Of a DNA stretch of 64,000 nucleotides, positions 9,051 through 63,671 are shown in pieces. The notes below the pieces were generated by a model that made no database searches, was not told the DNA's origin, and saw nothing but the letters and a program-made list of their open reading frames with translations. Numbering within the stretch: position 1 is the stretch's first letter; each line of letters opens with the position of its first letter. Both the position numbers and the translations under genes were made by a program. Source of the DNA: Patescibacteria group bacterium (lineage in GTDB: Bacteria > Patescibacteriota > Patescibacteriia > 2-12-FULL-57-11); contig SCUL01000001.1 in the NCBI GenBank assembly GCA_004297205.1, positions 93,862 through 157,861 on the forward strand, given 5' to 3'.

Positions 9051-9081
9051 ACGGCTGCAAGTATAGTCGCCCGGCCCCTGC

Positions 9082-9110
9082 TTGACAAAAGTACCTGCGA
9101 CCCGCAGTAT
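9082..9110 (+). promoter_or_regulatory. sigma70-like promoter TTGACA-17nt-CAGTAT. It shares the gCTTGACAAA motif with the rpmA promoter.
   Basis: ctgCTTGACAaaagtacctgcgacccgCAGTATgcg is followed by RBS AGGAGGA and the ATG at 9138. Confidence 0.4.
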
Positions 9111-9137
9111 GCGCCGCACGTCGGACCAGGAGGACAC

Positions 9138-9479: not shown

Positions 9480-9505
9480 ACCCGCACGGACGCTCCCCGG
9501 CTTCA

Positions 9506-9545
9506 GTCGAGCCAAGCTCGACCGCGGCCGGCTCTTTTTTATGAG
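9506..9545. terminator. bidirectional terminator: hairpin GTCGAG-ccaag-CTCGAC plus a GC-rich stem, then TCTTTTTT
   Basis: Lies between the convergent small ORF (+) and ribH (-). There is a T-run on the plus strand and an A-run-equivalent on the minus strand. Confidence 0.5.
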
Positions 9546-9558
9546 AAAAGCCCCGGCA

Positions 9559-10026
9559 TCAGCCGAGGCTTCCGACCGCGGCAAGCATCTCCAGCGCCAC
9601 CTTGGCCGCTTCCCGCCCGCGGTTCATCTCCCCCGGACCGCTGCGCTCCTCCGCCTGCTCGCGCGTAAAACAGGTGATGACGCCGAAGACACAGGGTTTT
9701 CCGTGGCGAAGCCCGACCTGCATGATGCCGGAGGCGGCGGCCCGGCTAATGTATTCAAAATGCGGCGTGTCGCCTTGGATGAGCGCGCCCAGGCAGATCA
9801 CGGCGTCCGCGGCTTTGGCGGCAAAAAGCCGGTCGGCGGCCAGCGGCACTTCAAACGAGCCCGGCACTTCGACGACGCGGACCTTCTCCTGCGGGATGCC
9901 CGCTTCGCCGAGCGCCTCGAGCGCCCCGGCAAGCAATGCCGCGGTGATGTCCTCGTTGAAACGCGCCCGGACGATGGCGACGCGAACGTCGGCACTGCGC
10001 ATCTTTTGGAAGGTATTGTGTTTCAT
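9559..10026 (-). CDS. ribH: 6,7-dimethyl-8-ribityllumazine synthase
   Basis: 155 aa. VAIVRARFNEDIT...VPGSFEVP...ICLGALIQGDTPHFEYI are lumazine synthase motifs. Confidence 0.9.
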   Translation of the reverse strand: MKHNTFQKMRSADVRVAIVRARFNEDITAALLAGALEALGEAGIPQEKVRVVEVPGSFEVPLAADRLFAAKAADAVICLGALIQGDTPHFEYISRAAASGIMQVGLRHGKPCVFGVITCFTREQAEERSGPGEMNRGREAAKVALEMLAAVGSLG

Positions 10027-10083
10027 ATGTGAGGCCTACGAAAGTACGAACGACCGCGAAAATACGAATTCGTAGTTTTGTTG

Positions 10084-10692
10084 CTATTCGTAATTTCGTA
10101 GGACCCGTTTCACCGTGTCCACGATCGCCTGCGTCTGGCGGTCGATTTCCAGATTGACGCGCTCCCCCACTTTCCGCGATCCGAACGTGGTGAGACGCAG
10201 CGTTTCCGGAATCAGATGGACGGTGAAGATCGTATCTACGGGATCGACGACGGTCAGCGAGCAGCCGTCGAGCGCGACGAAGCCCTTGGGCAGGATGTAC
10301 GGCACGAGCGCGGCATCGACGCGGAACGTGATGCTGCGGTTGTTCGGTCGTTCCTCGACCGCGACGATCTGCGCCATGCCGTCGACGTGTCCGGACACGA
10401 TGTGGCCGCCCAGCTCGTCGCCGATTTTATACGACCGTTCGACGTTCACGGTATCGCGCATGGCCAGCGTGCCGATGGTGGTTTTCTTGAGCGTCTCGTC
10501 CATGGCGTCGAACCAGACGTCGCCGCCGTCGAGGTGCGTCACCGTCAGACAGACGCCGGCCACGGCCACGCTCGCCCCGGGCTGGAGTCCAGCATGCAGC
10601 TCGGACGGCAGGGATACGGAAAAGCGACGCAGACCGGATTTCTCCTCGATGTGCGTGATCGGATAGTGGCCTTGGACGATCCCCGTGAACAT
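10084..10692 (-). CDS. ribE: riboflavin synthase alpha chain
   Basis: The internal start MFTGIVQG is the canonical riboflavin synthase N-terminus, and the protein has two lumazine-binding repeats. Confidence 0.85.
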   Translation of the reverse strand: MFTGIVQGHYPITHIEEKSGLRRFSVSLPSELHAGLQPGASVAVAGVCLTVTHLDGGDVWFDAMDETLKKTTIGTLAMRDTVNVERSYKIGDELGGHIVSGHVDGMAQIVAVEERPNNRSITFRVDAALVPYILPKGFVALDGCSLTVVDPVDTIFTVHLIPETLRLTTFGSRKVGERVNLEIDRQTQAIVDTVKRVLRNYE

Positions 10693-10693
10693 A

Positions 10694-11050
10694 TCAACCA
10701 AATGCCGCGCGGGCATCTTCCACGTCTTTTTTGATCTGCGCAACCAACGCCGCCTCGTCCGTGAACGTCAGCAGATCGCGGAGTCTTTTGCCGATCGAGA
10801 CGGCGACCGTCTTGCCGTACAGCTCGCCCCTGAAGTCGAGCAGATGCGCCTCGAGCGACGGATGCCCGTTCACGTCGTCCGTCCACATGCCGACCACGGC
10901 CAGCGCCTGGTGGACGGCGGTGCCGACGAGCACATGGGCCAGGAACACGCCGGGTGAAAGCCCCGACGTCTCGTGCGCGATGTTGGCCGTCGGATAGCCG
11001 ATGCGGCGGGCTTCCCCTTTGCCGCGCACCACGACCCCGCGGACGGTCAT
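10694..11050 (-). CDS. monofunctional riboflavin kinase (RibF C-terminal-like domain only, no FAD-synthetase domain)
   Basis: 118 aa. GKGEARRIGYPTANI matches the riboflavin kinase motif GxGRGxxLGFPTAN. The stop is 1 nt from the ribE start. Confidence 0.75.
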   Translation of the reverse strand: MTVRGVVVRGKGEARRIGYPTANIAHETSGLSPGVFLAHVLVGTAVHQALAVVGMWTDDVNGHPSLEAHLLDFRGELYGKTVAVSIGKRLRDLLTFTDEAALVAQIKKDVEDARAAFG

Positions 11051-11688
11051 ACCTGGGCCGGCGGCTTTTTGTCCCGTGCGTCGTCACGGGACCCCCCGAG
11101 CTCGCGTCTGATGATGCGGACGGCTTTGCGCAGCAGGCCGACCGTGTTCGGATAAATCGGGACGCGGTGGACGCGGTTGAGCGGCACCCAGTCGAGTTTG
11201 TGGATCATCTCCTCTTTCTGCGGCCGGCCGCGGCTGCCCGACGTCGCCTCCAACAAGTAGTAGGTGATGAACTTGTGTACCAGCGCGCCTTTGTGTTCGA
11301 AACGGTCGCGGAACCAGATGTCGGTCGTGCCGAGTTTGGACACCACTTTCAGACCGGCCAGCCCCATCTCCTCTTCCGTTTCGCGGACCGCGGCTTCTTC
11401 CAACGTCTCCCCCTTGGCCATTTTGACGTGGCCCTTGGCGAACGACCATTTGCCGTGCGAATCCAAAATGAAGCCGACGTACGGCCCGTCCGGCCGACGC
11501 TGAAAGACGATCCCGCCCGCGGTGATTTCCACGCGGGCCTGTTCGCCCGGCTTGCGCGCCGGCACCCGCCGGCGGCGCGGCCTAGCGCCCGCTCCGTGCC
11601 GTCCCTGCGGCGATGAGTTCGAGCGCTTTTTCGAGTTGGGGGTCTCGGTCGGCATCAATGTCTTCTTTGGTGTATTCAACCTTTTCAT
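11047..11688 (-). CDS. NUDIX hydrolase. True start is probably downstream of the annotated one (in-frame GTG near 11532 or an internal Met).
   Basis: Nudix box GHVKMAKGETLEEAAVRETEEEMGL. The K/R-rich N-terminal ~50 codons overlap the 3' end of the Ctp gene and are probably not translated. Confidence 0.7.
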   Translation of the reverse strand: MKRLNTPKKTLMPTETPNSKKRSNSSPQGRHGAGARPRRRRVPARKPGEQARVEITAGGIVFQRRPDGPYVGFILDSHGKWSFAKGHVKMAKGETLEEAAVRETEEEMGLAGLKVVSKLGTTDIWFRDRFEHKGALVHKFITYYLLEATSGSRGRPQKEEMIHKLDWVPLNRVHRVPIYPNTVGLLRKAVRIIRRELGGSRDDARDKKPPAQV

Positions 11689-12868
11689 CCGGAGCGATAC
11701 CCGTTTCGTTGATGGTCCGTCCCTTGGGCGTCAACCATTCGGCGATGGTCAGCTTGAGCGCGCCGCCGTCGGACAGCTCTTCGTAATCCTGGACGGATCC
11801 CTTGCCGAAGGTCTGTTCGCCCACGAGCGTGGCGAGCTCCGCGTCCTGGAGCGCGCCTGCCACGATTTCCGAGCCGGAAGCGCTGCCGCCGTTGACGAGC
11901 ACGACCGTGGGGAACTCCGCCAGCCGGGCGCGCACCGCCGCGTCAAACGGCTCGTCGTTGCCGTCGCTGCGCCGTTCGATCACGACCGTGCCGCGGCCGA
12001 TCCACTCGCCGGCCACGTCGACTGCGGCGTCCAGGTAACCGCCGGGGTTGTTGCGCAGGTCGAGGATGACGGCGACCGGCTTCTGGCGCGTGAATTCGCG
12101 GATGGCCTTGTCGAAGAGCGGCACCGTCTCCTCGTTGAACTGGCGCATCTCCACATAGGCGACGTTGCGCCCGTCCGTGGTGCGCTTCATCTCCCAGGTC
12201 ACCGATTTCACGACGATGACGTCGCGCACGACCGACACTTCGAACGGTTCACCGCCGTTGTTCTCGCGGAACAGCAGGAGCTTCACGGTCGTCCCTTTCT
12301 CGCCGCGGATAAGGTCCACGGCCTCGTCCACGGTCATGCCGCTCGTGTCCGAGTCGTCGATGCGCAGGATCATGTCGCCGGCTTTGATGCCGGCGCGCGC
12401 CGCCGGCGTGTCGGAGAGCGGGGCGATCACCACGATACGCTCTTCACGCATGCCGATCTCGGCGCCGATACCGCCGAAGGTGCCCTTGAGGTCGTTGGAG
12501 AATTCCTCGGCCGACTCCGGATCGAAGTACACGGAGTACGGATCGCCGAGCGAGGCCACGATGCCCGCCAGCGCGCCGCGGAACAATTCGCCCTCGCTTA
12601 CCGGCTGGTGCACGTACTTGCGGCGGATGTCGTCCCAAATCTTCCAGAACAGGGTGAAGTCGACGTCGTCCGGCAAGCCGCGTCCCTCAGCCAATGCGCG
12701 GCGGGCCGCGACGGCTTCGGATTCGGCACGGTCGGCGCCGCGCTTCTCGCCGACCAGCACGCCGGCCACGAAACCGCCGGTCCCCAGAAGCAGGACCAGA
12801 TAGATCGTGACCAAGCTACGCAATAGCCGCGTCCCCCGTTTTGAGGGCGGGACTCCGGGTTCGTTCAT
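11582..12868 (-). CDS. C-terminal processing peptidase (S41 family, Ctp/Prc-like) with an N-terminal TM anchor and a PDZ domain
   Basis: LDLRNNPGGYLDAAV and NGGSASGSEIVAG are S41 motifs. The track start at 12874 appears to be TTG, and the first ATG is 2 codons in. Confidence 0.85.
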   Translation of the reverse strand: MNEPGVPPSKRGTRLLRSLVTIYLVLLLGTGGFVAGVLVGEKRGADRAESEAVAARRALAEGRGLPDDVDFTLFWKIWDDIRRKYVHQPVSEGELFRGALAGIVASLGDPYSVYFDPESAEEFSNDLKGTFGGIGAEIGMREERIVVIAPLSDTPAARAGIKAGDMILRIDDSDTSGMTVDEAVDLIRGEKGTTVKLLLFRENNGGEPFEVSVVRDVIVVKSVTWEMKRTTDGRNVAYVEMRQFNEETVPLFDKAIREFTRQKPVAVILDLRNNPGGYLDAAVDVAGEWIGRGTVVIERRSDGNDEPFDAAVRARLAEFPTVVLVNGGSASGSEIVAGALQDAELATLVGEQTFGKGSVQDYEELSDGGALKLTIAEWLTPKGRTINETGIAPDEKVEYTKEDIDADRDPQLEKALELIAAGTARSGR

Positions 12869-47864: not shown

Positions 47865-48116
47865 TCAGGAACCGGACGTCAGCATGTCCTCTTTTTCGAG
47901 GCGTGTCATCTGCTTGACGGCCGCCTCTTTTTTGCGCGCCGCGGTCGCAGAACGCATGGCCTGCGACCAGACCACGGTCACCGGCAACCGCGAGCGGGTG
48001 TACTTGGCGCCTTTCCCGGCGTTGTGCGCCGCGAGGCGCGCGGAAAGATCGTTGCTGATGCCGGCGTACAGCGTGCCGTCGGCGCAGCGCAACAAGTAAA
48101 CGTGCCAGCGGCTCAT
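47865..48116 (-). CDS. GIY-YIG nuclease domain protein (UPF0213-like, small)
   Basis: WHVYLLRCADGTLYAGISNDLSARLAAHNAGKGAKYTR. Start at the internal Met, and the ATGA start overlaps the ABC transporter gene. Confidence 0.7.
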   Translation of the reverse strand: MSRWHVYLLRCADGTLYAGISNDLSARLAAHNAGKGAKYTRSRLPVTVVWSQAMRSATAARKKEAAVKQMTRLEKEDMLTSGS

Positions 48117-52802: not shown

Positions 52803-53780
52803 CTACGGCAGGTTTACGTTGACGTTCAGATTGAGATTCGCGTTCGCGTTTGCATTGGCATTCACGTTCACGTTCTCATTTTCGTTCTCATTTTCGTTTT
52901 CGTTGTCGTTCTCATTGTCGTTTGTGTTGACGTTGACATTGGCGCGCGGGCCGGTACCCGTCGCCGCGCCCGAACCGACGCGCAACTCGATGCGCAGCCT
53001 CAGCTGGCTGGCGGCCATGATCTGGGCATCCTGGGCGGTACGATGGGCCTGGGAAGCCAGCTGGAAAGCCTCGCCGTTCGCCCCGGCCGCAAGTCGGGCG
53101 CGCGCCTCGACCAGCAGAGTGTCGGCGGCGGACAGACGCGCTTCGCCGCGGGCCGTCGCTTCGGCGGACAGACGCGCACGGACACCGGCAATGTAACGAC
53201 GGACCTCGGCGATCTTGTTGGTGGCGGCGCCGATGCGGCCCTCCGCCGCGGCCCGCACGTCGGCCTGCGCCTTCAGGCGCCCTTCGAGATCGACGCGGAT
53301 GCGCTCGAAGGCGCGTGCCTCCTCCCCCACGCGGCCCCGAAGCGCGGCGGTCTCGGCCGCCTCCGACTGGCTGTCGATGTCGGCTTCGAGCTGCGCCAAG
53401 ACCTGCTCATGTGCCTTGAGCGACGTCTCGAGGTTCGAGGCGATGTCGGCCGCGGCCCGCACGTCGGCGTCCTCCAGATCGTCAATCAGCGCCTGGACGC
53501 GCCCGGCATGATCGCTGAAGTTTGTCTCGACCTGGGCACGCGTCTGGCCGTCCAGCCGGCCGTCCACGGCCAGCCGTTCCGCTTCATTCAGCCGTTCCAC
53601 GGCGATCTCGCCGTTCGTGCCGGCCTTGGCTTCGGCCGAAACGGAGAGCCCGACGCGCACGCGCTCGTTGACCTGGACCTTGATCGGATGCAGGACGTCG
53701 CCGGGAAGGCTGGTGTTGGCGGCGACCGAAACGCCCCCGCCGAGGACCAGGGCTATGATGATAGCGATGATTGCGTTCAT
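52803..53780 (-). CDS. coiled-coil protein with an N-terminal TM anchor and a low-complexity Asn-rich C-terminus (DUF5667-like architecture). An alternative in-frame start at 53981 would add a 67-aa basic N-terminal extension.
   Basis: Start at MNAIIAIIIALVLGG with AAGGA upstream. Long Ala/Glu/Arg-rich heptad region. Tail NVNVNTNDNENDNENENENENENVNVNANANANANLNLNVNVN. The upstream in-frame MARYGKAAQKSVKRAVSKYKRRK... is K-rich and not junk-like. Confidence 0.55.
   Translation of the reverse strand: MNAIIAIIIALVLGGGVSVAANTSLPGDVLHPIKVQVNERVRVGLSVSAEAKAGTNGEIAVERLNEAERLAVDGRLDGQTRAQVETNFSDHAGRVQALIDDLEDADVRAAADIASNLETSLKAHEQVLAQLEADIDSQSEAAETAALRGRVGEEARAFERIRVDLEGRLKAQADVRAAAEGRIGAATNKIAEVRRYIAGVRARLSAEATARGEARLSAADTLLVEARARLAAGANGEAFQLASQAHRTAQDAQIMAASQLRLRIELRVGSGAATGTGPRANVNVNTNDNENDNENENENENENVNVNANANANANLNLNVNVNLP
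52806..52935. repeat. imperfect hexanucleotide repeat (~20 units, NNCGTT-type) encoding the (N-V/N-E/N-A) tail
   Basis: cgttcagattgagattcgcgttcgcgtttgcattggcattcacgttcacgttctcattttcgttctcattttcg... Confidence 0.6.
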
Positions 53781-54040
53781 ATAAACGAATCCTTTAGCGG
53801 CGCCGACGCGGGGCGGCGGCACCTTGGCGCCTTTCTTGCGCGCCATGGATAAACCAATAGCAATGGCTTGCGCACGGCTGCGGACCACGCGCCGCGCTTT
53901 GCCGCTGTGGAGTTTCCTTCTTTTATATTTGCTGACCGCCCGTTTGACCGACTTTTGGGCGGCTTTCCCGTATCTCGCCATACGCGGGAGAAAAGAAAAG
54001 GAGCAAGAATTCGATTATACACTTTTTGTGTCCCGCCGGA

Positions 54041-55069
54041 CTATACGATCTGCTCAAACAGCCGGGCGTAGGCCTGCCCCACCCGCCGCCGGTCGAAGCG
54101 CGTCTCCGCTTCCGTGCGGCATGCTTCACGAGAAAGACGGCCGACATTGCCGATCCTATCCTTGAAATCCTCAAAGGAGTCAACGATATAGCCGGTCACG
54201 CCGTCGCGCAACACCTCCGGCACGGAACCGTTGTTGAAGGCCACGACCGGCGTGCCGCAGGCCAGGGACTCGATCATCACCAGCCCGAACGCCTCCTGCC
54301 AGCGGCTCGGGAACAGCAGGGCTTTGGCGCCGGCGAAGAGGGCGGACTTTTCCGCCTGGCTGATTTCGCCGACATAGCGGATCTGCTCGCCGTCCACGAA
54401 GGAGAACACCTCCTTTTGCACGAAGGCCTCGTCTTCCTTCCGATACACGCCGGCGATGACCAGCCGTTCCCCGAGCTCGCGCGCCGCCCGAACGGCAAGA
54501 TCGACGCCCTTGTCGTGCGTCATGAGACCGATGAAAAGCAGATACCCGTCGCCCGGGGAGAAATCCGGGATATAGGCCGAGGTGTCGATCCCGTGCGGAA
54601 TGGTGGCGACGTAGTTCAGCGCGGGGGCCAACCGGCGCTGCGCCTCGCTGATCGACACGAACGGCCGGTCCTTAAAGCGCTCGGCCAGGTAGGGAAAGTC
54701 CGGCGGCTTGCTGCCGTGCAGCGTGGTGACGATCGGCGCGTCGACCACCCGGCTCAAGACGAGCGGATGGATACCGGCATGATTATGGATGACGTCGAAC
54801 TCGCCCGCGCGCGCCAGGAGCTCGTCGAACGCCAGGAACTCGTATGCCGGGACGGCGTTCCAGGAGAATCCGCCGAGCAGTTCGAGCATCGGCTTCCCGA
54901 TGACTTGCACCAGCGTGGCGGGGGTCTTCGATCCGCCGCAGGCGAACAGCGTCACCTCGTGACCCAACTCGTGCAGGGCCGTGGAGATGTCGGAGACGGC
55001 CAGCTCCGTGCCGCCGTATTTGGGCGGCGGGACCGGGACCCACAGCGGGGCGAATTCGGCGATCCTCAT
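54041..55069 (-). CDS. glycosyltransferase family 4 (GT-B, retaining)
   Basis: EAFGLVMIESLACGTPVVA is the EX7E region. 342 aa. Confidence 0.8.
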   Translation of the reverse strand: MRIAEFAPLWVPVPPPKYGGTELAVSDISTALHELGHEVTLFACGGSKTPATLVQVIGKPMLELLGGFSWNAVPAYEFLAFDELLARAGEFDVIHNHAGIHPLVLSRVVDAPIVTTLHGSKPPDFPYLAERFKDRPFVSISEAQRRLAPALNYVATIPHGIDTSAYIPDFSPGDGYLLFIGLMTHDKGVDLAVRAARELGERLVIAGVYRKEDEAFVQKEVFSFVDGEQIRYVGEISQAEKSALFAGAKALLFPSRWQEAFGLVMIESLACGTPVVAFNNGSVPEVLRDGVTGYIVDSFEDFKDRIGNVGRLSREACRTEAETRFDRRRVGQAYARLFEQIV

Positions 55070-56538
55070 AGACGGGTCCTGGTTTCTAATTCCTTAAGCA
55101 ACATCGCGGAAACACGTTTGGTGAAGCGGGTCTCGGCGTCGACCATGACCACCGACGCATGAAGCGCAAACACGAGGACGGCGGCGGCCGCGATCGCCGG
55201 GCGTCCTTCGGCGACGGCGATCATCCCGAGCACGGCGCTGACGATGCTCATGCCGATCTCGAAAATCGAGTGTTCGACGGCCGGGGGAACGCGCGGAATG
55301 ATGAACTTGTTGGTGCGCTCAAACTTGCCGCCGAGGCGGAAGACGCCCAGGAAGAGCGCGGTGGCGTACGTCCAATTCATGCCGAAGTGGACGGCCAGGG
55401 CCCGCAGGATGTCCGTCCAGGAGTATCTCCCATGGAACAGCAGGCCGAAGGCAACCGTCTTCGTCGCGACGTGGATGGCCAAGGCTGCCGCGGACACCAG
55501 GATGATCCGTTCGGTGAAGCGCCCTTCGCCGATGCCGGCCATCTCCGCCAAGGAAAAGGCGACGATGCACAGGCTCGGGAGCAACGTAAAATTCGTCCAG
55601 GCGCCGAGTTGCGACAAGAGCGCCAGCTTCTGGGCCCACGACAGGTCGCTGGGGAAGACGATGTCCGTGAAACGCCGCATCAGGACCTCCATGTTCCCGC
55701 GCGCCCACCGCTTCTTCTGTTTCTTGTAGGCGACGAAGTCGTACGGCATCACCCCGCGGCCCATGACCCGGTCGACAAAGACGCCGCGATACCCCGCAAA
55801 GAACAGCCGTGCGCCCATCTCGGCGTCCTCCGTCATCGAAGTGGGCGTGTAGGGCCCGACGTGCCGCAGCACCGCGGCGCGGAAGACGGTCAGCGTACCC
55901 GTCGCCGTGACGCACCCGAAACGGTTGCCGGCGTTCAGGTAATTCTGGAAGAAGTGCTCATACTCGATGCGCAGACCCCGGTTCCCGGAACCGATGTTTT
56001 GGTAGGTCTGCGGAAACTGCACGAAGGCCACGCGCTCGTCGCTGAAATACCGCAGCGCTTCCGTGAGGAAGTCCGGCTGGACCTCGTAGTCGGCGTCGAC
56101 CACGGCGATGAATTCCGCGCGCGGGTCGGTCTTCTCCCGCAACAGATTCAACGCTCCGGCCTTGAATCCGGACAACTTGTCGACGTGATAGAACCGGAAG
56201 GGCGCCCCGAGCTCCTTGCAGTAGGCCTGGATGGGTCTCCAGACGGCGGGGTCCGCGGTGTTGTTGTCCAGGACGATCACCTCGAAGTCGCCGTGCCGCA
56301 ACCCGTGCAGCGAGCGCAGGGTGTTCTTGAGCAGGACGGGCGGTTCGTTGCAGGTCGGCACGTGGATCGAGACGAAGCCGGTGCGCGGTCGGGCCGAGCG
56401 CCGCGGCGGTCTCTTGGGGAGCAGGGCGCCGACGATCTGTAATCCGCCCTGCACGGCCACGAGGGAAACCGAGCCGTATGTCAGCAAAAGCAGGGCGCCG
56501 ACAAAAATGTCATGTGCGGCCGTGACATACAGGGGCAT
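55066..56538 (-). CDS. glycosyltransferase family 2, processive (cellulose-synthase-like), with a C-terminal TM domain
   Basis: VIVLDNNTAD, VVDADYEV, TEDAEMG and the QxxRW-type KKQKKRWARG. The 4-nt overlap with the GT4 gene suggests an operon. Confidence 0.8.
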   Translation of the reverse strand: MPLYVTAAHDIFVGALLLLTYGSVSLVAVQGGLQIVGALLPKRPPRRSARPRTGFVSIHVPTCNEPPVLLKNTLRSLHGLRHGDFEVIVLDNNTADPAVWRPIQAYCKELGAPFRFYHVDKLSGFKAGALNLLREKTDPRAEFIAVVDADYEVQPDFLTEALRYFSDERVAFVQFPQTYQNIGSGNRGLRIEYEHFFQNYLNAGNRFGCVTATGTLTVFRAAVLRHVGPYTPTSMTEDAEMGARLFFAGYRGVFVDRVMGRGVMPYDFVAYKKQKKRWARGNMEVLMRRFTDIVFPSDLSWAQKLALLSQLGAWTNFTLLPSLCIVAFSLAEMAGIGEGRFTERIILVSAAALAIHVATKTVAFGLLFHGRYSWTDILRALAVHFGMNWTYATALFLGVFRLGGKFERTNKFIIPRVPPAVEHSIFEIGMSIVSAVLGMIAVAEGRPAIAAAAVLVFALHASVVMVDAETRFTKRVSAMLLKELETRTRL

Positions 56539-56659
56539 AGTTGGTCGTGGACCATTATGCCATCCGGACGGGAAAATGGCCACTCGCCGCATGTCGCCGC
56601 CGCAGGAGCTGCGGGAGCTGAGCGGTCAGGGGCGGTAGGAATCGGTTTGCTGCCGCAAA

Positions 56660-56692
56660 CGAAAACACCAGCCACATCGGCTGGTGTTTTCG
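56660..56692. terminator. bidirectional terminator hairpin AACACCAGCC-acat-GGCTGGTGTT with T-runs on both strands
   Basis: Perfect 10-bp stem at the left edge of the low-GC island. Confidence 0.5.
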
Positions 56693-56832
56693 TGACAGGC
56701 CAACTCGCCTGAAAACTGACACTTTCAGGGGGGTTCAAGCTACTTTCGGGGTTTGACCGCTGGATACTCGGTCGGAAGAGAAAAGTGGAAAAAGTGGGAC
56801 TCCGGGTGAGGGGCGTGTCTCACTTTTAGAGG

Positions 56833-57345
56833 TTACAGGAGCCGCGCGGTCGAAAGCTTGATGGAGAGTGCCTGGGCACTGACAAGGTATTTCTTCGCCA
56901 GCGAAGGAATGTCCGGCGTGGCCGCGAGATCCTTCTTTAGCATCTTCGCGGGCATCAGCAATTCGCCAGCAAAGAGGTTCGCCTCCTTTTCGGCGTGCGA
57001 GGCCGGACCGTCTTCGCTACAGCTACCGTGCCTCATGAGCATGTGTCCGATTTCATGCGCCAGTGTAAAGCGGCGGCGACACCCTGGGTGGTTCTCGTTG
57101 AACACAATCGTGACGAATTCATCGTCCGCCTTTTTACACACGACCAGAAGTCCAGAGACCTTTTCGGTGAACTTCTGGCTGCCGACCACGTCTAGGTTTG
57201 TTTTGGACTGAAGATGCTCAATGACTTGGCGCAGGGACACGGGTGCGGTCGAGATGCGCGCATGCTTCAGAAGATTTTGAGCTGTGACTTCAGCAAACTT
57301 CTTCCGAGGCCCGAGATCGACCCCGCCCTCATCCATTCTTTGCAT
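56833..57345 (-). CDS. ImmA/IrrE-family metallopeptidase (anti-repressor protease)
   Basis: HEIGH motif in RFTLAHEIGHMLMRHG. Start at the internal Met overlaps the XRE gene's 3' end, as in immR-immA pairs. Confidence 0.75.
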   Translation of the reverse strand: MQRMDEGGVDLGPRKKFAEVTAQNLLKHARISTAPVSLRQVIEHLQSKTNLDVVGSQKFTEKVSGLLVVCKKADDEFVTIVFNENHPGCRRRFTLAHEIGHMLMRHGSCSEDGPASHAEKEANLFAGELLMPAKMLKKDLAATPDIPSLAKKYLVSAQALSIKLSTARLL

Positions 57346-57679
57346 TCCCTTTTCGCTTAGCCATTTCAATAATCCGCTCGATCGCTTCCCGATCTTGTTT
57401 GGAAATATTCTTCTCCGCCCTAAGCGCAACTATGACGTCCATCTTTGTGTCTTTGCCCAGCAAAGAATCCACGTCGATCTTAAGGATGCTTGCGATGCGA
57501 CCCAGATTCTCCGCCGTCACCCCGCGCTGGTCGTTTTCTATGAGGGAGATGGCGGTAGCGGTTTCGAAATCCAGCGCCTTCGCAAGGTCAAGCTGTGAAT
57601 AACCTGCGGCCTCCCGTGCAGCCCGTATGCGCTGACCAATTGTTTTCGCCTTATTCTCATCGGTTTTCATACGTTTCAT
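57329..57679 (-). CDS. XRE-family helix-turn-helix transcriptional regulator (ImmR/Cro-C1-like)
   Basis: IGQRIRAAREAAGYSQLDLAKALDFETATAISLIENDQRGVTAENLGRIASIL is an HTH_XRE domain. Confidence 0.8.
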   Translation of the reverse strand: MKRMKTDENKAKTIGQRIRAAREAAGYSQLDLAKALDFETATAISLIENDQRGVTAENLGRIASILKIDVDSLLGKDTKMDVIVALRAEKNISKQDREAIERIIEMAKRKGNAKNG

Positions 57680-57707
57680 GTTGGCATGATAGCATCATCG
57701 TTTCGAT

Positions 57708-57755
57708 TTGACAAGGGTATTTCGTATTGATATACTTCTATTGTCATAATGACAA
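57708..57755 (+). promoter_or_regulatory. consensus-like promoter TTGACA-17nt-TATACT followed by a perfect palindrome TTGTCAT-a-ATGACAA (candidate repressor operator). A divergent promoter for the XRE gene overlaps it on the other strand.
   Basis: gatTTGACAagggtatttcgtattgaTATACTtctaTTGTCATAATGACAAtatcc lies 25 nt upstream of the operon's first ATG. In reverse it reads TTGTCA-17-TATCAT before the XRE ATG. Confidence 0.55.
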
Positions 57756-57778
57756 TATCCCCCGTAGGGGTCACCCAC

Positions 57779-58051
57779 ATGAACACCTACCTCGTGTCGT
57801 ACGACCTTCGGAAGCCGGGAAAGGATTACGCCCCGCTGCACGCGTTCCTCAAAAAGTATTCGGCATACGCGAAGCCCCTTGAGTCGCTGTGGTTCGTGAA
57901 GAGCCCGCTGACCGCCGAGGGCGTCCGCAACGAGATCATGACCCAAATCGACTCCAACGACCGCCTCTTCGTCGTGAACGTCACCAAGGCGGGTGCGGCT
58001 TGGACCGGCGTGGACAACGCAAATTCTAACTGGATTAAGGCTAACATGTAA
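57779..58051 (+). CDS. hypothetical small protein with a Cas2/VapD-like beta-alpha-beta-alpha-beta sequence pattern (putative ferredoxin-fold nuclease-like)
   Basis: MNTYLVSYDLRKPGKDYAPLHAFLKKYSAYAKPLESLWFVKSPLTAEGVRNEIMTQIDSNDRLFVVNV. Compare the Cas2 pattern LVxYDI..kRraKv.k.L..yG.RvQnSVFec.l......l...i..ii...DsvriY.l. There is no cas1 or CRISPR array in the window. Confidence 0.45.
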   Translation: MNTYLVSYDLRKPGKDYAPLHAFLKKYSAYAKPLESLWFVKSPLTAEGVRNEIMTQIDSNDRLFVVNVTKAGAAWTGVDNANSNWIKANM

Positions 58052-58056
58052 CCCCT

Positions 58057-58278
58057 ATGGCAAACCAGCACATAGTGCAGCGCGAGGAAGGTTGGGCGGT
58101 CCGGCGCGAGAAGGCCGGACGCGATACCGCCGTCCTCGACACCCAAGCGGAGGCAATCAAAGAGGCGAAGCGCATCGCGGACAACCAGGGCGGCGAGGTG
58201 CTCATCCACGGGCGTGACGGCAAGATCCGCAACAAGGATACGCACAGCAAGGTCGACCATCACCCACCTAAAGGCTAA
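58057..58278 (+). CDS. DUF2188-family small protein
   Basis: HIVQREEGWAVRREKAGRDTAVLDTQAEAIKEAKRIADNQGGEVLIHGRDGKIRNKD matches the DUF2188 pattern. Confidence 0.6.
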   Translation: MANQHIVQREEGWAVRREKAGRDTAVLDTQAEAIKEAKRIADNQGGEVLIHGRDGKIRNKDTHSKVDHHPPKG

Positions 58279-58283
58279 CCCCC

Positions 58284-58502
58284 ATGAACATCGGCGAAGT
58301 TAAGAACAAGGCAGAGTGCCCCGCCTGCAAGGCTGCGGTCGAGTTCACCCTGGTGGAGATCGCTGCGGAATCGTCCGTGACATGTGGCGGCTGCGGGGCA
58401 TCAATCAAGCTCACCGACAAGGACGGCGGCGCAAAGAAGCTCATCAAGGAGATGAACGATATCACCTCCCAATTCCCCAAGAAGATCACCCTCAAGTTCT
58501 AA
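58284..58502 (+). CDS. small zinc-ribbon protein (CPAC...CGGC)
   Basis: 72 aa with four Cys in two CxxC pairs. The 5-nt spacing from the previous gene suggests it is in an operon. Confidence 0.5.
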   Translation: MNIGEVKNKAECPACKAAVEFTLVEIAAESSVTCGGCGASIKLTDKDGGAKKLIKEMNDITSQFPKKITLKF

Positions 58503-58526
58503 TCCATCACCGACCCAAACGACCGT

Positions 58527-58835
58527 ATGATTTACGACTTCAAGGGTCCGTACACCTTCTCTGAAAAGGTCATATCGGACTGGGACAGCGACTCGATCGG
58601 CGTCTACTACTGCGGATACAAAAATGCGGATGGAAAGCTCGCTATCTGCTACATCGGCAGGGCAGTCGCCGAAGGCGGTATGCGCGGACGCCTCCTCGAG
58701 CACCTCGGTGAGGACAAGTGGTCCGATGTTACTCACTTTGGCTTCCATCGTTGCGACACCGCCACGGAGGCCAAGAACCACGAGATTGCCGAAATCGTTC
58801 TCTACAAACCCAAATACAACACGGTCGGCAAGTGA
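58527..58835 (+). CDS. stand-alone GIY-YIG nuclease domain protein
   Basis: GVYYCGYKNADGKLAICYIGRA...RLLEH...NHEIAEI carries the GIY-YIG motif, the Arg and the Glu. It has no additional DNA-binding domain. Confidence 0.65.
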   Translation: MIYDFKGPYTFSEKVISDWDSDSIGVYYCGYKNADGKLAICYIGRAVAEGGMRGRLLEHLGEDKWSDVTHFGFHRCDTATEAKNHEIAEIVLYKPKYNTVGK

Positions 58836-58937
58836 GTGTGGTGCCGCACCTCGCCGAGAAGTACACGAGGTAGCTCGCGGAATAAAAAACGTAACGCCCT
58901 CGAACATGCTGAGGGCGCGGTAGTGATCCATAATCGT

Positions 58938-59014
58938 GCTTTGCTTATCGGGCTAAAAACTTATCTACTTGTTCGATAAGCCGAGCCCATGTAACTAGGT
59001 GTGACCTTTGTTTA
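58938..59014. promoter_or_regulatory. AT-rich region upstream of the methyltransferase gene with an inverted repeat GCTTATCG...CGATAAGC and a palindrome TTTGTT-tat-AACAAA. Candidate promoter/operator.
   Basis: Seen directly in the sequence. It is preceded by a terminator-like hairpin CGCCCTC-gaacatgct-GAGGGCG at ~58895. Confidence 0.35.
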
Positions 59015-59030
59015 TAACAAATAGATAGTT

Positions 59031-59810
59031 ATGGGAAATTCCTATACAATTCCAATGTTAATCGCTATGCCAGAAGCAGTAGCTACAAAACGACGGATCC
59101 AGGGAGGGGTCGCTACGACCAACCTAGTCTTGTCAGCCCATGTAACGGGAAATGCCGATGTCTTCCCGACAGTTATTGATTTGCATGTGGCTCCGGGATC
59201 AAAGGTGGCTGACGTCACTTACGGAAAGGGTGTTTTTTGGAAAAAGGTTCCGCCGGGAAAGTACCAACTTTTCCCGAGCGATCTGAAAACCGGAATTGAT
59301 TGCACAAAATTACCCTACGAAAACGAGAGTCTTGATTGCGTCGTTCTTGATCCCCCCTACATGGAGGGGCTATTCCGCGGATCAAAGAATCAGCTGGCCG
59401 GATCTGGTACCCACGCAGCCTTCCGCGAAAACTATTCCAACGGTCAAGCATCCTCAATTGATGGGCCGAAATGGCACGACGCTGTTCTCGACCTGTACTT
59501 CCGTGCTGGCATCGAGGCCAGGAGGGTTCTAAGAAATGGCGGTACGCTCATCGTCAAATGCCAAGATGAAGTGAGCGCAAACAGGCAGAGACTTACTCAC
59601 GTTGAGATCATCAACGAGTACGTTGGGTATGGATACTACGCGAAAGATATTTTCGTAGTCGTACGGACGAACAGGCCGGTCATGAGCCGACTAAAGAAGC
59701 AGGTTCACGCTCGAAAAAACCATTCTTACTTCCTCGTGTTCGTGAAGGTCCCTGTCAACAAAAATCCGCGTCTTTATCGACCGCGAAGCAATTCGTCGAG
59801 CAACGGATAG
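59031..59810 (+). CDS. DNA methyltransferase (N6-adenine or N4-cytosine class, DPPY motif). Probable modification subunit of a type II R-M system.
   Basis: [10 protein letters not shown] (motif IV) followed by LAGSGT (motif I-like), which is a beta-class order. The gene is low-GC. Confidence 0.75.
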
Positions 59811-60352
59811 GGATCGGTGGTAAAGGGAGGCTCAGGAGGCCAAGAGACGTTGACTGTAGTGGCCAGCAGGTGTTGCTGCTGCTCGGGGGTATACTTTTTG
59901 GATTTAGATCTCGGAAGGTCTTTGTTTTTTGCAAAAATGAACCTCCAACCCTCCCCGAACGAGAAGAGATTCACCGCCAAGATATCGAACTCGCCCACAA
60001 GCAGGCACGTGGTTTCGACAACTGACCCGTCAAACAGCTTGACTGGCCGCCGGTCGCTTGCGTCAACTTGGGCTTTTCCGCACATCACCTTGTCAACACA
60101 ACGGATACTATTCGTTTGAAGCGACTTCACTTCGATGAAGAACTCTCTGCCACCGTAAGTAACGGAAATATCGCCTTTCTTAGTGCGGTCGTGATCATCA
60201 TACTTTTTTACATTTGTCACTTCCTTACGGCCATCGAACCACGTCTTCTTGGCCTTGGTCTCGCCGAGATAACCAAGAAGCATCCCGCGCAGGCTGGGAT
60301 TCGTGTCTATTACTTCGGTGAGATCATCCGCTGTGATCTCCCATCTCTGCAA
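59774..60352 (-). CDS. putative restriction endonuclease (PD-(D/E)xK-like motif), convergent with and overlapping the methyltransferase gene
   Basis: [17 protein letters not shown] gives D...E-x-K. The call rests on position and motif only, with no recognisable family. Confidence 0.4.
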
Positions 60353-60569
60353 GATGTCCTTCTTGGGGTCACTCAGATCGAGAGAGTATTACCACAAATT
60401 GACAGATGAGTCCAGTATAGCGCCCAACCATCTTCGGCGACTAGCCACACAGTAATTGAAAAAGCACCAACCGAAGATGGCGGCTTTCAGCAACTGGCTT
60501 GGGACTCCGATCTTTGGAACCGGCGCGCAACTTCCGCTGGGAAGCCGGATTTTGACGCAAGTCATCTCT

Positions 60570-60616
60570 TGGCAGGGGCGGTAGGAATCGAACCCACGCA
60601 AGGGGTTTTGGAGACC
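60570..60616 (-). repeat. partial tRNA-Trp gene copy (3' 47 nt: acceptor, T-arm and part of the anticodon stem). An att-like direct repeat of the intact tRNA-Trp 1.4 kb away.
   Basis: tggcaggggcggtaggaatcgaacccacgcaaggggttttggagacc is identical to 62026..62072 and lies at the right edge of the low-GC island. Confidence 0.7.
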
Positions 60617-60627
60617 TTGCGCGAGTG

Positions 60628-60664
60628 ATAAAAAAGTAGGCTCTCAGCATTTCTGCTGAGAGCC
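60628..60664 (-). terminator. intrinsic terminator hairpin GGCTCTCAGCA-tttc-TGCTGAGAGCC plus a T-run, minus-strand orientation, downstream of rtcB
   Basis: 11-bp perfect stem, with TACTTTTTT on the minus strand. Confidence 0.55.
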
Positions 60665-60689
60665 CGGTGCTGTCGCGTCGTCGAGGCGA

Positions 60690-61877
60690 TCACCCCTTGA
60701 CGCAGAGCACCTGCTTGAGCTCGGCCACGATCTCGACCAGGTCCGCCTGGTTGGCCATCACCCGCTCGATGTCCTTGTAGGCCGCGGGGATCTCGTCGAG
60801 GACCCCTTCGTCCTTGCGGCACTCCACGCCGGCGGTCTGCGCGGCGAGGTCCGCCGTCGTGTAGGCCTTCTTGGCCTTGTTGCGGCTCATCCGCCGACCG
60901 GCGCCATGCGAGGCGCTCTGGTAGGACTCGGCGTTGCCGCGGCCGCGCACGATGTAGCTCTTCGCGCCCATCGACCCGGGGATGATCCCGAGATCGCCGG
61001 CACCCGCGCGGATCGCGCCCTTGCGGGTGATGAAGAGCTGCTCGCCGAAGTGCGTCTCCTCGGCCACGTAGTTGTGGTGGCAGAGTACCGGTGCCTCGCA
61101 GGTCATGTGCGGAAAGGACCCGCGCAGCACCGCGAGGCAGCGCTCCAGCATCACGGTCCGGTTGATCCGCGCGTACTCCTGCGCCCAGTAGAGGTCGCGT
61201 CGGTACGCGGCCATCTGGGGCGTTCCGGCGAGGAACACCGCGAGGTCGCGGTCCGGAAGCTCGGCGTTGTGGGCCAGCTTCTTGGCCGCGGCGATGTGGA
61301 AGTCGGCGAGCTCCTTGCCGATGTAGCGGCTGCCCGAGTGCAGCATCACCCACACCCGGCCCTCCGTGTCGAGACACAGCTCGACGAAGTGATTACCGCC
61401 GCCGAGCGTTCCGAGCTGCTTCGCAGCGCGGCTGGCCAGCTGCCCGACCTTCGGCGACAGCTCGGCGAACCGCGCCATGAGCTCGGCGCCGGCGCGAGCC
61501 GTCTCTGCCGCGCATGCCGCGAACACCGGCTCCTCGTAGGTGGCGAAGCCCACGGGGATCGCCGCCTCGATCGCGAGCCGAATCTCGCGCAGCGACTCCG
61601 GCAGGTCGCCCGCGGTGAGGTTGGTCCTCACCGCGCCCATGCCGCAGCCGATGTCGACACCGACCGCGGCCGGCGACACGGCGTCGCGCATGGCCACGAC
61701 GGAACCGACCGTCGCGCCCTTGCCGAAGTGGACGTCCGGCATGATGGCGACGTGGTGCACGCACCACGGCAACCGGGCGATGTTCTTCAGCTGCTCGAGC
61801 GCCTCGGCCTCGACGTCGGCGACGTCGGTCCAGAGCTTCACGGGTACCCGACCACCGACGATCTCACTGCGTGCCAT
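60690..61877 (-). CDS. rtcB: RNA-splicing ligase RtcB
   Basis: GGGNHF, HGAGR and MPDVHFGKGATVGS are RtcB motifs. 395 aa. High GC, host-like. Confidence 0.9.
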   Translation of the reverse strand: MARSEIVGGRVPVKLWTDVADVEAEALEQLKNIARLPWCVHHVAIMPDVHFGKGATVGSVVAMRDAVSPAAVGVDIGCGMGAVRTNLTAGDLPESLREIRLAIEAAIPVGFATYEEPVFAACAAETARAGAELMARFAELSPKVGQLASRAAKQLGTLGGGNHFVELCLDTEGRVWVMLHSGSRYIGKELADFHIAAAKKLAHNAELPDRDLAVFLAGTPQMAAYRRDLYWAQEYARINRTVMLERCLAVLRGSFPHMTCEAPVLCHHNYVAEETHFGEQLFITRKGAIRAGAGDLGIIPGSMGAKSYIVRGRGNAESYQSASHGAGRRMSRNKAKKAYTTADLAAQTAGVECRKDEGVLDEIPAAYKDIERVMANQADLVEIVAELKQVLCVKG

Positions 61878-62025: not shown

Positions 62026-62099
62026 TGGCAGGGGCGGTAGGAATCGAACCCACGCAAGGGGTTTTGGAGACCCCTGTACTACCATTATACGACGCCCCC
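62026..62099 (-). tRNA. tRNA-Trp (anticodon CCA), with the 3' CCA encoded
   Basis: The reverse complement GGGGGCGTCGTATAATGGTAGTACAGGGGTCTCCAAAACCCCTTGCGTGGGTTCGATTCCTACCGCCCCTGCCA folds as a cloverleaf. The anticodon loop is CTCCAAA and the T-loop is GGTTCGATTCC. Confidence 0.85.
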
Positions 62100-62147
62100 A
62101 GGCGCGGAAGACGTTACGCGAAAATGTCCGACAGGGCAAGACTGCCA

Positions 62148-63671
62148 CTATTTGAACGAGTCCGCGAACACCGGCGCGATCATGGTGTCGACCGGGACGT
62201 AATCGTCGGTCAGGACGAGCCCCTTCTTCTCCGTAACGAATCGGTCGAGCTCGTCGGCGGGAATCAGGTAGTGCATGCGCTCCCAAAGATCCGCGGCGTT
62301 CTCGCCGTCGATGCGCACGCCCGTGGGAGCGCTCCCCTTCCAGTCTCCCGGCAACTGCGCGTCGCTCGCCAGCACCACGAAGGTGTTGCGGCCTTTGTCC
62401 CGCCAGTTCTCGCCGAGCGGCAGCACCAGAACGGTGGCGAATTGCGCGCGCAGCGTTGCCACGGTCGAAGCCAGGAAGCGGCCGTGCCGCGCGTCGTCGA
62501 TGATGTTCACGGCGTACCAGCCGTCGGACGCGAGATGTTCCTTCACGAGTCCGTGGAACTCGCGCGTCGTCAGGTGGTACGGCACCGAGTAGTCGTTGAA
62601 GGCGTCGCCGAACACGAAGTCGTAGCTCTCGTCGGCGGGCATGCGCATCAAGGCGATGCGCGCGTCGCGGTTGACGCTGACGATGTCCGTGTCGCGCGGC
62701 AGGCCGAACCGTTCATGGACGATCTCGGTCACGCCGGGGTCGATTTCGAGCACCGTGTTCGCCGATCCGGGGTACTGCGCGGCGACGTACCGCGGCATGG
62801 TGTATCCCCCGCCGCCGATATAGAGCGCGCGCGGCGCCGCTTTGCCGACCGCGGCCATCAGCACGGCGTACACTTTCTCGTATTCGTACCCGAGCTCGCT
62901 CGGGTCGGTCTTGGAGACGTAGCTGTGCACGAGGTGGTCCAGACGCAGGATGGAAAAATCCTCCTGCTCGGTGACGCGGATGCAGTAATACTGCGTCTCG
63001 GCCGTGCACTGCGCCGGCAGGAACAGCGTCGAGATGAACAGCAACCCGGCGGCAGCGGATTTCTTGCCCGGTCGCAACCCCTGCGCGTGAACGAAGGCCG
63101 CGAGGAGCAAAAGCACCACCGCGGACAGACGCACGATGGTGGCCGTGCCGATGAGGTCGATCAGGACGAAGCCGGTCGTGAACGTGCCGAGGATGCTCCC
63201 CAGCGTGCCGAGCGCCGAGATGCGGCCGACCGTGCGCCCGGTCCGCGACAGGTCGGTCAGGTCGAACTTCACGACGAGCGGCGAGACGGCCCCGAGCAGG
63301 ATGCTCGCCGGCAGGAAGGTGAAGATGGAAAACACCAAGGCTGCGACCATCAACGGCAGCGGCGTAAACGTCAGGGTGTTGCCGAGCACCGGCACGATGA
63401 ACAGCACCAGGATGGTGGCGATACCGGCCGCGAAAAAAAGCACCGCCACATGCGCGCGCTTCAGCTCCGTGTCCGCCACTTTGCCGCCCAGCCAGGCGCC
63501 GATGCTGATGCCGGCCAGGATGACCCCGATGATGGCCGTCCAGGTGAAAATCGAGACGCCCAGGTACGGCGCCATGACCCGGCCGGCCACCAGCTCCAGC
63601 GTCATCAATACGAAACTCGCCAGGAAGACGATCGTCCCTCCGAAGCGCAAGGATTCCCTCCCCTGATCCAT
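62148..63671 (-). CDS. polytopic membrane domain fused to a spermidine-synthase-like (PABS) aminopropyltransferase domain
   Basis: N-terminal ~200 aa of TM helices, then LYIGGGGYTMPRYV...DFVFGDAFND, which are spermidine synthase family motifs. Confidence 0.7.
   Translation of the reverse strand: MDQGRESLRFGGTIVFLASFVLMTLELVAGRVMAPYLGVSIFTWTAIIGVILAGISIGAWLGGKVADTELKRAHVAVLFFAAGIATILVLFIVPVLGNTLTFTPLPLMVAALVFSIFTFLPASILLGAVSPLVVKFDLTDLSRTGRTVGRISALGTLGSILGTFTTGFVLIDLIGTATIVRLSAVVLLLLAAFVHAQGLRPGKKSAAAGLLFISTLFLPAQCTAETQYYCIRVTEQEDFSILRLDHLVHSYVSKTDPSELGYEYEKVYAVLMAAVGKAAPRALYIGGGGYTMPRYVAAQYPGSANTVLEIDPGVTEIVHERFGLPRDTDIVSVNRDARIALMRMPADESYDFVFGDAFNDYSVPYHLTTREFHGLVKEHLASDGWYAVNIIDDARHGRFLASTVATLRAQFATVLVLPLGENWRDKGRNTFVVLASDAQLPGDWKGSAPTGVRIDGENAADLWERMHYLIPADELDRFVTEKKGLVLTDDYVPVDTMIAPVFADSFK

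Follow-up and report, generated by a model that had tools for sequence, protein, structure and literature searches.

Nucleotides 56645-60569 of the 64,000-nucleotide (nt) stretch analysed here (the window), which comes from contig SCUL01000001.1 of a Patescibacteria genome, probably constitute a small, horizontally acquired islet without an integrase, lying in tandem with an rtcB cassette at the 3′ side of the tRNA-Trp gene, at a site that is variable in every related Patescibacteria genome examined. Judged from its sequence, the islet appears to be a mosaic of mobile-element ancestry with a putative role in defence. An earlier sequence-only reading of this DNA had proposed an integrative mobile or defence island at this position, and the proposal is supported: the region is not core, it is framed by tRNA-derived repeats, and its cargo is of mobile-element and defence type.

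The composition of the islet sets it apart from its surroundings. Specifically, its G+C content (GC) is 0.529, versus 0.646 in the remainder of the window, and in sliding windows GC falls from ~0.64 to 0.48-0.60 across roughly 56.6-60.6 kb. All 1-kb windows with starts from 56501 to 60001, and no others in the 64 kb, have a GC below 0.58. Additionally, tetranucleotide distance to the rest of the window reaches its maximum at 56645-60569. The GC drop at ~56.7-60.6 kb claimed from the sequence alone is thus the single such dip in the window, and uniform composition is ruled out by both measures. The window as a whole has a GC of 64%, although its source is annotated as a metagenome-assembled genome (MAG) of the Patescibacteria, also called the candidate phyla radiation (CPR).

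The edges of the low-GC stretch are marked by copies of a tRNA gene. The tRNA-Trp(CCA) gene, the sole tRNA found in the window by ARAGORN and Rfam, is located at 62026-62099 on the minus strand. An exact 47-nt copy of its 3′ half, identical to 62026-62072 and spanning the anticodon stem through the encoded CCA, occupies 60570-60616 at the junction of the islet and the rtcB cassette, where the sequence-only reading had placed the end of the island. At the distal (left) boundary, an exact 18-nt copy of the tRNA-Trp 3′ end, CAGGGGCGGTAGGAATCG, lies at 56627-56644 and covers the T-loop to the discriminator base; with up to three mismatches allowed, this 18-mer has three copies in the window versus 0.11 expected. 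Direct repeats derived from the tRNA gene thus stand on both sides of the low-GC stretch. The two 47-nt copies enclose rtcB separately, and the rtcB cassette intervenes between the islet and the tRNA gene. That the 47-nt pair brackets rtcB alone had been recognised before, and this part of the earlier account stands; the element boundaries, then called unresolved, are no longer so, as the 18-nt copy sets the left edge. The degenerate second attachment (att) copy that was to be sought near 56.6-56.9 kb exists and is exact rather than degenerate.

Comparison with relatives shows that the site is occupied differently in each genome. Four relatives were found through the fused major facilitator superfamily (MFS)/spermidine synthase gene of the right flank, namely L097, L099, L102 and L103 (amino acid (aa) identities, in descending order, of 90, 87, 86 and 66%), and all share a backbone of PrsW, L33 and MFS/spermidine synthase genes, then tRNA-Trp, then HI0933-like, ATP-binding cassette (ABC) transporter and small GIY-YIG genes. 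Between the tRNA-Trp 3′ end and the HI0933-like gene, L103 has one small gene, L097 has HicB-like, C39 peptidase and leucine-rich repeat genes, and L102 has Bro-N plus two other open reading frames (ORFs). In L099, the closest relative by its flanking gene (90% aa identity), the tRNA-Trp CCA is followed directly by a C5-methylase/Vsr system together with a large serine recombinase (5458-12018). Since different genes lie downstream of tRNA-Trp in each of the four, the site is an insertion hot spot. None of the genes in the relatives' variable regions was found in the window by tblastn; conversely, rtcB, the islet genes, and the GT2, GT4 and DUF6496/DUF5667 genes are present at the tRNA-Trp site in 0 of 4 relatives. 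The four thus keep the backbone without any islet gene, and conserved synteny at tRNA-Trp is not seen. That the islet is a core, vertically inherited region whose low GC reflects gene-specific constraints is hardly credible: the idea draws on nothing beyond adjacency to conserved genes, and it is contradicted by relatives without any of the islet genes at the site, by deviating composition and tetranucleotide usage, and by the flanking tRNA fragments.

To the left of the islet, the GT2, GT4 and DUF6496/DUF5667 genes (52803-56592) have host-like GC, and none of the four relatives has them at the site either; accordingly, the lineage-specific stretch runs from the HI0933-like gene (end at 52756) to the tRNA (52.8-62.0 kb). 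Within the DUF6496/DUF5667 ORF, 12-nt-periodic direct repeats (GTTTACGTTGACGTTCAGATTG and variants, at spacings of 48, 36 and 24) occupy 52812-52941 and suggest a repetitive coding segment.

The tRNA-Trp gene itself differs from that of the relatives. Only 54 of 75 positions (72%) are identical between the tRNA-Trp of the window and the 75-nt tRNA-Trp of the four relatives, among which this gene is 100% identical, including the relative with 66% identity in the flanking protein. The differences are compensatory in the stems, and the ~60 nt upstream of the gene (62100-62160) are orthologous to the relatives. By these alignments, the gene body at 62026-62099 is non-orthologous and appears to have been replaced by a foreign type. 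Closest to it are Bacillota-type tRNA-Trp genes in phage and plasmid records (82-84%); an exact 33-mer of it has no match in IMG/VR or JGI metagenomes. All three repeat copies are of the foreign type. On the other hand, a native-type tRNA tail with its terminator lies at 56650-56701 on the minus strand, consisting of CCTGTCACG, a hairpin and then TCGTTTGCGG; an alignment with L097 and a blastn comparison show that it is homologous to the final 7 nt of the native tRNA-Trp and the terminator that follows it in that relative. This segment sits ~5.4 kb from the present tRNA gene, immediately inside the 18-nt copy, and its hairpin doubles as the terminator of the XRE-ImmA operon described below. 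What lies in the place of the relatives' tRNA interior is thus the block that extends from tRNA position 7 to the ImmA side. Such an order of pieces is not derivable from one simple integration; it may have come about because the element once resided at a native-type tRNA-Trp, or through recombination with a related donor that replaced the whole locus. The adjoining 56702-56775 was considered as a decayed native tRNA and rejected, with a local alignment score of 7 versus 7.2 ± 1.4 for shuffles and no tRNA found by Rfam.

No recombinase is found by Pfam among the islet ORFs, and tblastn of the 64 kb with one tyrosine recombinase (from L178) and two serine recombinases from related loci yields nothing, not even a remnant, in agreement with the absence of a visible integrase remarked on earlier. 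L178, a Logan contig of 4,031 nt, provides the strongest evidence for a small integrative element as the origin of the islet's left block. It is collinear with 56836-58276 over 1.44 kb at 72% nt identity, with aa identities of 70% for ImmA, 85% for XRE, 66% for the Cas2-fold protein and 67% for DUF2188. Beyond DUF2188, L178 carries two small genes and then, 1 kb further on, a 373-aa tyrosine integrase (PF14659 and PF00589). Whether L178 is bounded by att repeats was also considered, but its sole end-to-end repeat is a 10-mer that is equalled in 44 of 500 shuffles; one end may, judged by eye, resemble a tRNA 3′ end, but Rfam finds no tRNA fragment there.

The left block of the islet encodes a regulatory pair. 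On the minus strand, an XRE-family repressor of 116 aa, CapH/ImmR-like (57329-57679; Pfam HTH_3, 1.2e-11), is followed by an ImmA/IrrE-type M78 zinc peptidase of 170 aa (56833-57345; Pfam PF06114, 1.5e-16) that contains a HEIGH motif, and the XRE ORF overlaps the ImmA start by 17 nt. These Pfam matches and the overlap bear out the XRE/ImmA pair of the sequence-only reading, in which a repressor gene precedes an HExxH M78/COG2856 peptidase gene in one operon, as in ImmR/ImmA. The best PADLOC matches of the pair are capH (1.2e-13, full length) and capP (1.3e-22, profile positions 6-151 of 242). CapP consists of a zinc peptidase, a helix-turn-helix (HTH) domain and a C-terminal GAF domain (Lau et al. 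2022, 10.1101/2022.04.27.489752), and by its sequence the peptidase is best described as ImmA-like rather than as a full CapP. As is the case for CapH/CapP, the pair is located upstream of and opposite to a four-gene operon; Lau et al. (2022; 10.1101/2022.04.27.489752) described CapH/CapP-like pairs that likewise precede DUF2188 operons on the opposite strand. Between the two operons, 57686-57757 contains back-to-back promoters (57686-57736) and a palindrome. Specifically, the plus-strand promoter reads TTGACA-17-TATACT (11 of 12 consensus matches) and the minus-strand promoter TTGTCA-17-TATCAT (10 of 12), and a perfect 9-1-9 palindrome, TATTGTCAT-A-ATGACAATA at 57739-57757, directly downstream of the plus-strand -10 box, is a putative operator. 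Alignment of homologous modules shows that this promoter region between XRE and the first operon gene is conserved at the DNA level.

The operon comprises four tightly spaced plus-strand ORFs at 57779-58835, with gaps of 5, 5 and 24 nt, as the description of a divergent operon of small proteins had it. The first gene encodes a 90-aa stand-alone Cas2/VapD-fold protein (57779-58051; phrog_1090, E 1.6e-26), the second a 73-aa DUF2188 protein (58057-58278; Pfam PF09954, 7e-21; phrog_3220; PADLOC candidate PDC-S16, 6e-27), the third a 72-aa CxxC...CxxC zinc-ribbon protein, recognised from the sequence and from weak zinc-ribbon and Lar-like matches (58284-58502), and the fourth a 102-aa GIY-YIG-like protein (58527-58835; invariant motif residues, and a phrog endonuclease profile at 5.6e-4). 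Defence-system profiles thus return capP, capH and PDC-S16 among the islet proteins. The terminator that had been assigned to the end of the operon does not hold up: on the plus strand, the hairpin at ~58893-58915 is preceded by an A-run and not followed by a T-run, a consensus scan did not call it as a plus-strand terminator, and, judged by eye, it fits minus-strand termination better.

The 90-aa protein has a Cas2 fold with the strand-1 Asp, and the top Foldseek match of its model is GhoS, a type V antitoxin. Pfam Cas2 scores it at 15.4 bits, under the 23.8-bit threshold, and its gene neighbours are XRE/ImmA and DUF2188, not cas1 and a CRISPR array; no CRISPR repeat array was found in 52-64 kb of the window. 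A word-indexed search returned 20 homologues, including the identical EPO33_00820, and an exhaustive profile search retrieved 4,794 cluster representatives at E≤1e-3, of which 1,689 remain at 1e-10; almost all are ~90 aa long. Some phage records label the homologue Cas2. The family, phrog_1090, is widespread, uncharacterised and often mis-annotated as Cas2. In four metagenomic or MAG settings (L082-L087), the triad of M78 peptidase (166-171 aa), XRE (113-116 aa) and divergent 90-aa protein is kept and the cargo after it varies: 43- and 85-aa ORFs then a methyltransferase; a 115-aa ORF; or ThsB-TIR, 8xMP and two methyltransferases. Large serine recombinases lie near the triad in two of the four settings, one of which, L082, also carries RusA.

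These distributions bear on the idea that a prophage or phage satellite decayed until its lysogeny-control end remained as the islet, with the four small genes as leftover early genes or morons. Homologues of the 90-aa protein do occur in temperate-phage immunity or early regions (Enterococcus phiFL1A gp05, Staphylococcus SN8 gp35 and Mannheimia 587AP2) and as lone, oppositely oriented genes in prophage structural regions; the DUF2188 protein and the islet's methyltransferase also have phrog families (phrog_3220 and phrog_24333), and RusA accompanies the serine recombinase of L082. However, the islet contains no structural, replication or lysis genes, the integrase-bearing L178 is only ~4 kb and without phage genes, and loci of the GIY-YIG-like gene are flanked by housekeeping genes on the regulator side and by restriction-modification (R-M) genes rather than phage genes. 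We thus consider a prophage remnant unlikely.

The 102-aa protein belongs to a small family, with 16 proteins in a word-indexed search, whose alignment has invariant GVYY, Y[IV]G, R53, R55, H59, E86, E89 and N98. It has no Pfam GIY-YIG match, DUF123 alone appearing at E 0.065, and a PDB sequence search found nothing significant; because the structure model is poor, its proposed GIY-YIG superfamily membership rests on the motifs and weak profile matches. A different gene, a conserved 83-aa stand-alone GIY-YIG gene (PF01541 in relatives), lies at 47868-48116 after the backbone ABC transporter gene and is distinct from the 102-aa gene.

A metagenome scan with the GIY-YIG-like gene identified 68 loci and a recurrent architecture. 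A homologue of the window's XRE lies divergent from and upstream of the gene in 30 of the 68, with an ImmA-like homologue next in 25 of these 30; in 13 loci the divergent partner is a LexA-like protein (LexA DNA-binding domain and Peptidase_S24), and in 7 a longer XRE fusion protein lies upstream. Downstream, within 3.5 kb, there are 98 ORFs of ≥150 aa, among which are 19 N6_N4, 11 D12 and 2 Eco57I/MmeI-type methyltransferases, and endonucleases of ScaI (4), DpnII (3), TdeIII (2), EcoRI (2) and DpnI type, as well as GmrSD and ResIII. On the regulator side, by comparison, a single one of 61 ORFs relates to R-M, the others being housekeeping genes (serine hydroxymethyltransferase, ClpP, SufB, trigger factor, thymidylate synthase and others), with no integrase among the 61. 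A tRNA gene lies 0.5-3 kb downstream in eight loci, and in seven of the eight its 3′ end faces the cassette, the same as in the window. The layout of the window, with switch, small nuclease-like genes, R-M and tRNA, is therefore one instance of a recurrent, compact, integrase-less arrangement, in which the switch and GIY-YIG unit stays constant and the R-M types differ. In three contigs (L131, L132 and L135; L132 7284-7917), tRNA-Lys adjoins a switch/GIY-YIG/ScaI-type R-M cassette, with a 19-nt copy of the tRNA-Lys 3′ end ~160 nt away and a second partial tRNA-Lys ~400 nt away, the same kind of tRNA-fragment scar as in the window.

We found no paper that describes a switch-plus-GIY-YIG cassette architecture beside R-M systems. 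It is a tentative possibility, worth stating although we do not hold it likely, that a cleavable repressor (ImmR/ImmA or LexA-like S24) divergent from a ~100-aa GIY-YIG gene, a 90-aa Cas2-fold gene or both forms an undescribed damage-triggered nuclease module that is functionally coupled to type II R-M systems of unrelated specificities. If this were true, the module would be a back-up effector upon restriction failure or self-damage by the R-M system, or alternatively would serve to move or stabilise R-M cassettes in small genomes of the Patescibacteria type, and the window would hold its two-nuclease version.

A related suggestion is that XRE/ImmA and the small nucleases are not a damage-induced switch but stabilise the adjacent R-M cassette as a toxin-antitoxin or addiction module. 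The NCBIfam best match of the peptidase, the spr1629 repressor/antitoxin family, its PADLOC RmrA matches, the GhoS antitoxin as top Foldseek match of the Cas2-like model, and the small, nuclease-like genes would fit this suggestion. Yet the regulators are separate and ImmR/ImmA-like, with divergent promoters as in CapH/CapP and ICEBs1, a LexA-like S24 repressor partners the GIY-YIG gene in 13 loci and points to damage control, and the cargo downstream of the Cas2-like gene is variable, all of which makes an addiction module very unlikely.

The right part of the islet carries the R-M pair, in which a plus-strand γ-class DPPY N6_N4 methyltransferase of the M.NruI/M.Sbo13I family (59031-59810; 61% to the pSB13 methylase; phrog_24333, 1e-68), which may actually begin with a Met at 59052 or 59064, converges with a minus-strand 192-aa restriction endonuclease candidate (59774-60352) that overlaps its 3′ end by 37 nt. 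Along its entire length the candidate shares 54% identity with the ORF that converges with the pSB13 methylase gene, and a D...EVK motif can be read in it by eye; it has no Pfam match, and a PDB sequence search returned nothing significant. In tblastn against plasmids it matches the 5,424-bp Shigella boydii pSB13 and a Leptospira plasmid, with a convergent methylase in both. The convergent DPPY methyltransferase and putative endonuclease noted previously are hence corroborated, the latter by homology to the ORF paired with the methylase of the Sbo13I plasmid. Sbo13I is an NruI isoschizomer that cuts TCG/CGA and whose gene lies on a 5.4-kb plasmid resident in S. boydii C13, and M.NruI and M.Sbo13I are γ-group enzymes with DPPY as motif IV (PMC2890505). 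Given the homology to pSB13 and this family description, the pair is classed as an intact type II R-M system of the NruI/Sbo13I family, which probably recognises TCGCGA. That sequence occurs 17 times in the window. Its observed/expected ratio is 0.30 when a dinucleotide model is used and 0.64 with a maximal-order model, and among 64 palindromes it comes 15th; site avoidance is therefore uninformative on the specificity of the pair and was dropped as a pointer to it. ATCGAT, CACGTG and GGGCCC, along with TCGCGA, are 3- to 6-fold under-represented in the window versus the dinucleotide model.

Between the perfect 47-nt repeats, rtcB is best read as a separate single-gene cassette, stacked in tandem with the islet. 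The gene (60690-61877, minus strand) encodes an intact RtcB RNA ligase (Pfam RtcB, 5.5e-125), has a GC of 0.695 with a host-like GC at third codon positions (GC3) of 0.93, and possesses its own terminator at 60638-60665. Among species-representative genomes, the nearest relatives of the protein belong to other phyla and come from a gammaproteobacterial MAG (74%), Leptonemataceae (68%) and actinomycetes (~65%); DNA similarity to them is limited to the coding region, and none of the 13 relatives' loci checked lies beside a tRNA or carries the 18-mer. A tie of rtcB to the islet, for example in the repair of nuclease-cut tRNA, is speculation. An identical RtcB is found elsewhere solely in L001 (Logan SRR8426588, 1,469 nt), which consists of the unique rtcB segment plus 30 nt of the repeat at each end. 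As L001 ends within the repeats, the 47-nt repeats appear to break the assembly graph, and short-read assemblies are therefore likely to be fragmented or mis-joined here.

Several observations weigh against a single mobile islet with a defence function. The boundary repeats are unequal (18 versus 47 nt), and the native-type tail and terminator inside the 18-nt copy are not predicted by simple integration. With no integrase or remnant in the islet or the 64 kb, mobility is historical at best. GC3 is heterogeneous between sub-blocks, at 0.73-0.82 in the four small operon genes versus 0.54-0.67 in XRE, ImmA and the R-M pair, and homology to L178 is restricted to the left 1.44 kb, so that the islet may be a mosaic of at least two acquisitions. 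On the functional side, the peptidase is without the HTH and GAF domains of CapP, the AlphaFold2 model of the 102-aa protein is of low confidence (predicted local distance difference test score 57.6), and TCGCGA is not depleted in the window to a degree that distinguishes it from other palindromes.

Some of these observations lead to the main competing account, in which an ImmA-XRE-Cas2-like-DUF2188 block, a zinc-ribbon/GIY-YIG piece and a plasmid-type R-M cassette were joined by separate events at the hot spot, the repeats being scars of remodelled elements. The sharp GC3 differences between sub-blocks, the end of L178 homology after DUF2188, the R-M homologues carried on small plasmids, the different content of the site in every relative and the native-type terminator inside the left boundary all accord with this account. 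Against it, the GIY-YIG gene and a repressor stand beside unrelated R-M types in dozens of independent loci, so their adjacency is not accidental, and only two repeats bracket the 3.9 kb, with no internal tRNA fragments found inside it. We give such piecewise assembly a serious though somewhat less than even chance.

For the islet as a horizontally acquired unit, we propose the following course. The islet would descend from ~4-kb integrative elements in which an ImmA-XRE block divergent from Cas2-like and DUF2188 genes was combined with a tyrosine integrase, and would have entered by site-specific recombination at the tRNA 3′ end, leaving the 18-nt and 47-nt copies. The integrase may have been lost later or never retained, and the islet would now be immobile unless an integrase acts in trans. 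By analogy with the respective families, the XRE repressor would keep the four-gene operon off by binding the palindrome, which overlaps the rightward transcription start, until a DNA-damage or infection signal activates the ImmA-type metalloprotease to cleave the repressor. Derepression would then release the Cas2/VapD-fold protein, the DUF2188 protein, the zinc ribbon and the minimal GIY-YIG nuclease as a second-line, probably toxic, nuclease response, and the NruI/Sbo13I-type R-M pair would serve as constitutive first-line restriction. The integration mechanism, switch logic, nuclease activity, R-M specificity and defence role in this proposal are all predicted from sequence.

As a genomic island the islet is ordinary; what merits further attention is its cassette architecture and the replaced tRNA gene. 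The locus documents an insertion hot spot in Patescibacteria, a group with very small genomes, together with tandem tRNA-fragment scars and a replaced tRNA-Trp body. The islet also ties two widespread uncharacterised small families, phrog_1090 and the 102-aa GIY-YIG-like family, to switches of the DNA-damage type. Moreover, switch-plus-nuclease cassettes adjoin unrelated type II R-M systems far more often than expected by chance, which suggests a regulated layer on R-M defence.

Among known systems, the switch most resembles ImmR/ImmA of ICEBs1 and phage phi105, in which an XRE repressor gene is followed by an M78/COG2856 peptidase gene and diverges from the controlled operon; a palindromic operator at the promoter, putative here, is shared with both ImmR/ImmA and CapH/CapP, and a DUF2188 gene within the controlled operon is found for some CapH/CapP-like pairs (Lau et al. 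2022). Unlike in ICEBs1, no int or xis follows the XRE/ImmA pair, and unlike CapP, the 170-aa peptidase is missing HTH and GAF. The controlled genes also differ from those of operons for cyclic oligonucleotide-based antiphage signalling (CBASS) or excision, being a Cas2-fold protein, DUF2188, a zinc ribbon and a GIY-YIG-like protein. Of the stand-alone Cas2/VapD-fold proteins, BPSL1038, a DNase (PMC10491678), and GhoS share only 11-23% sequence identity with the 90-aa protein. The R-M pair agrees with NruI/Sbo13I in its γ-class DPPY methyltransferase, its homologous endonuclease ORF and their convergent order; it differs from pSB13 in having no controller (C) protein gene upstream of the endonuclease, and from NruI/Sbo13I in being chromosomal, in a Patescibacteria genome. 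Compared with tRNA-associated islands and cis-mobilizable elements (CIMEs), the locus is distinct in its 64 kb without an integrase, its repeats of 18 versus 47 nt, its non-orthologous tRNA body and the native-type tail and terminator kept at the far edge. It shares with them, however, the deviant GC, the position at a tRNA 3′ end and the direct repeats of tRNA 3′ fragments, and, as in the tandem accretion of CIMEs, two stacked cassettes that are absent from relatives are joined at a common middle repeat.

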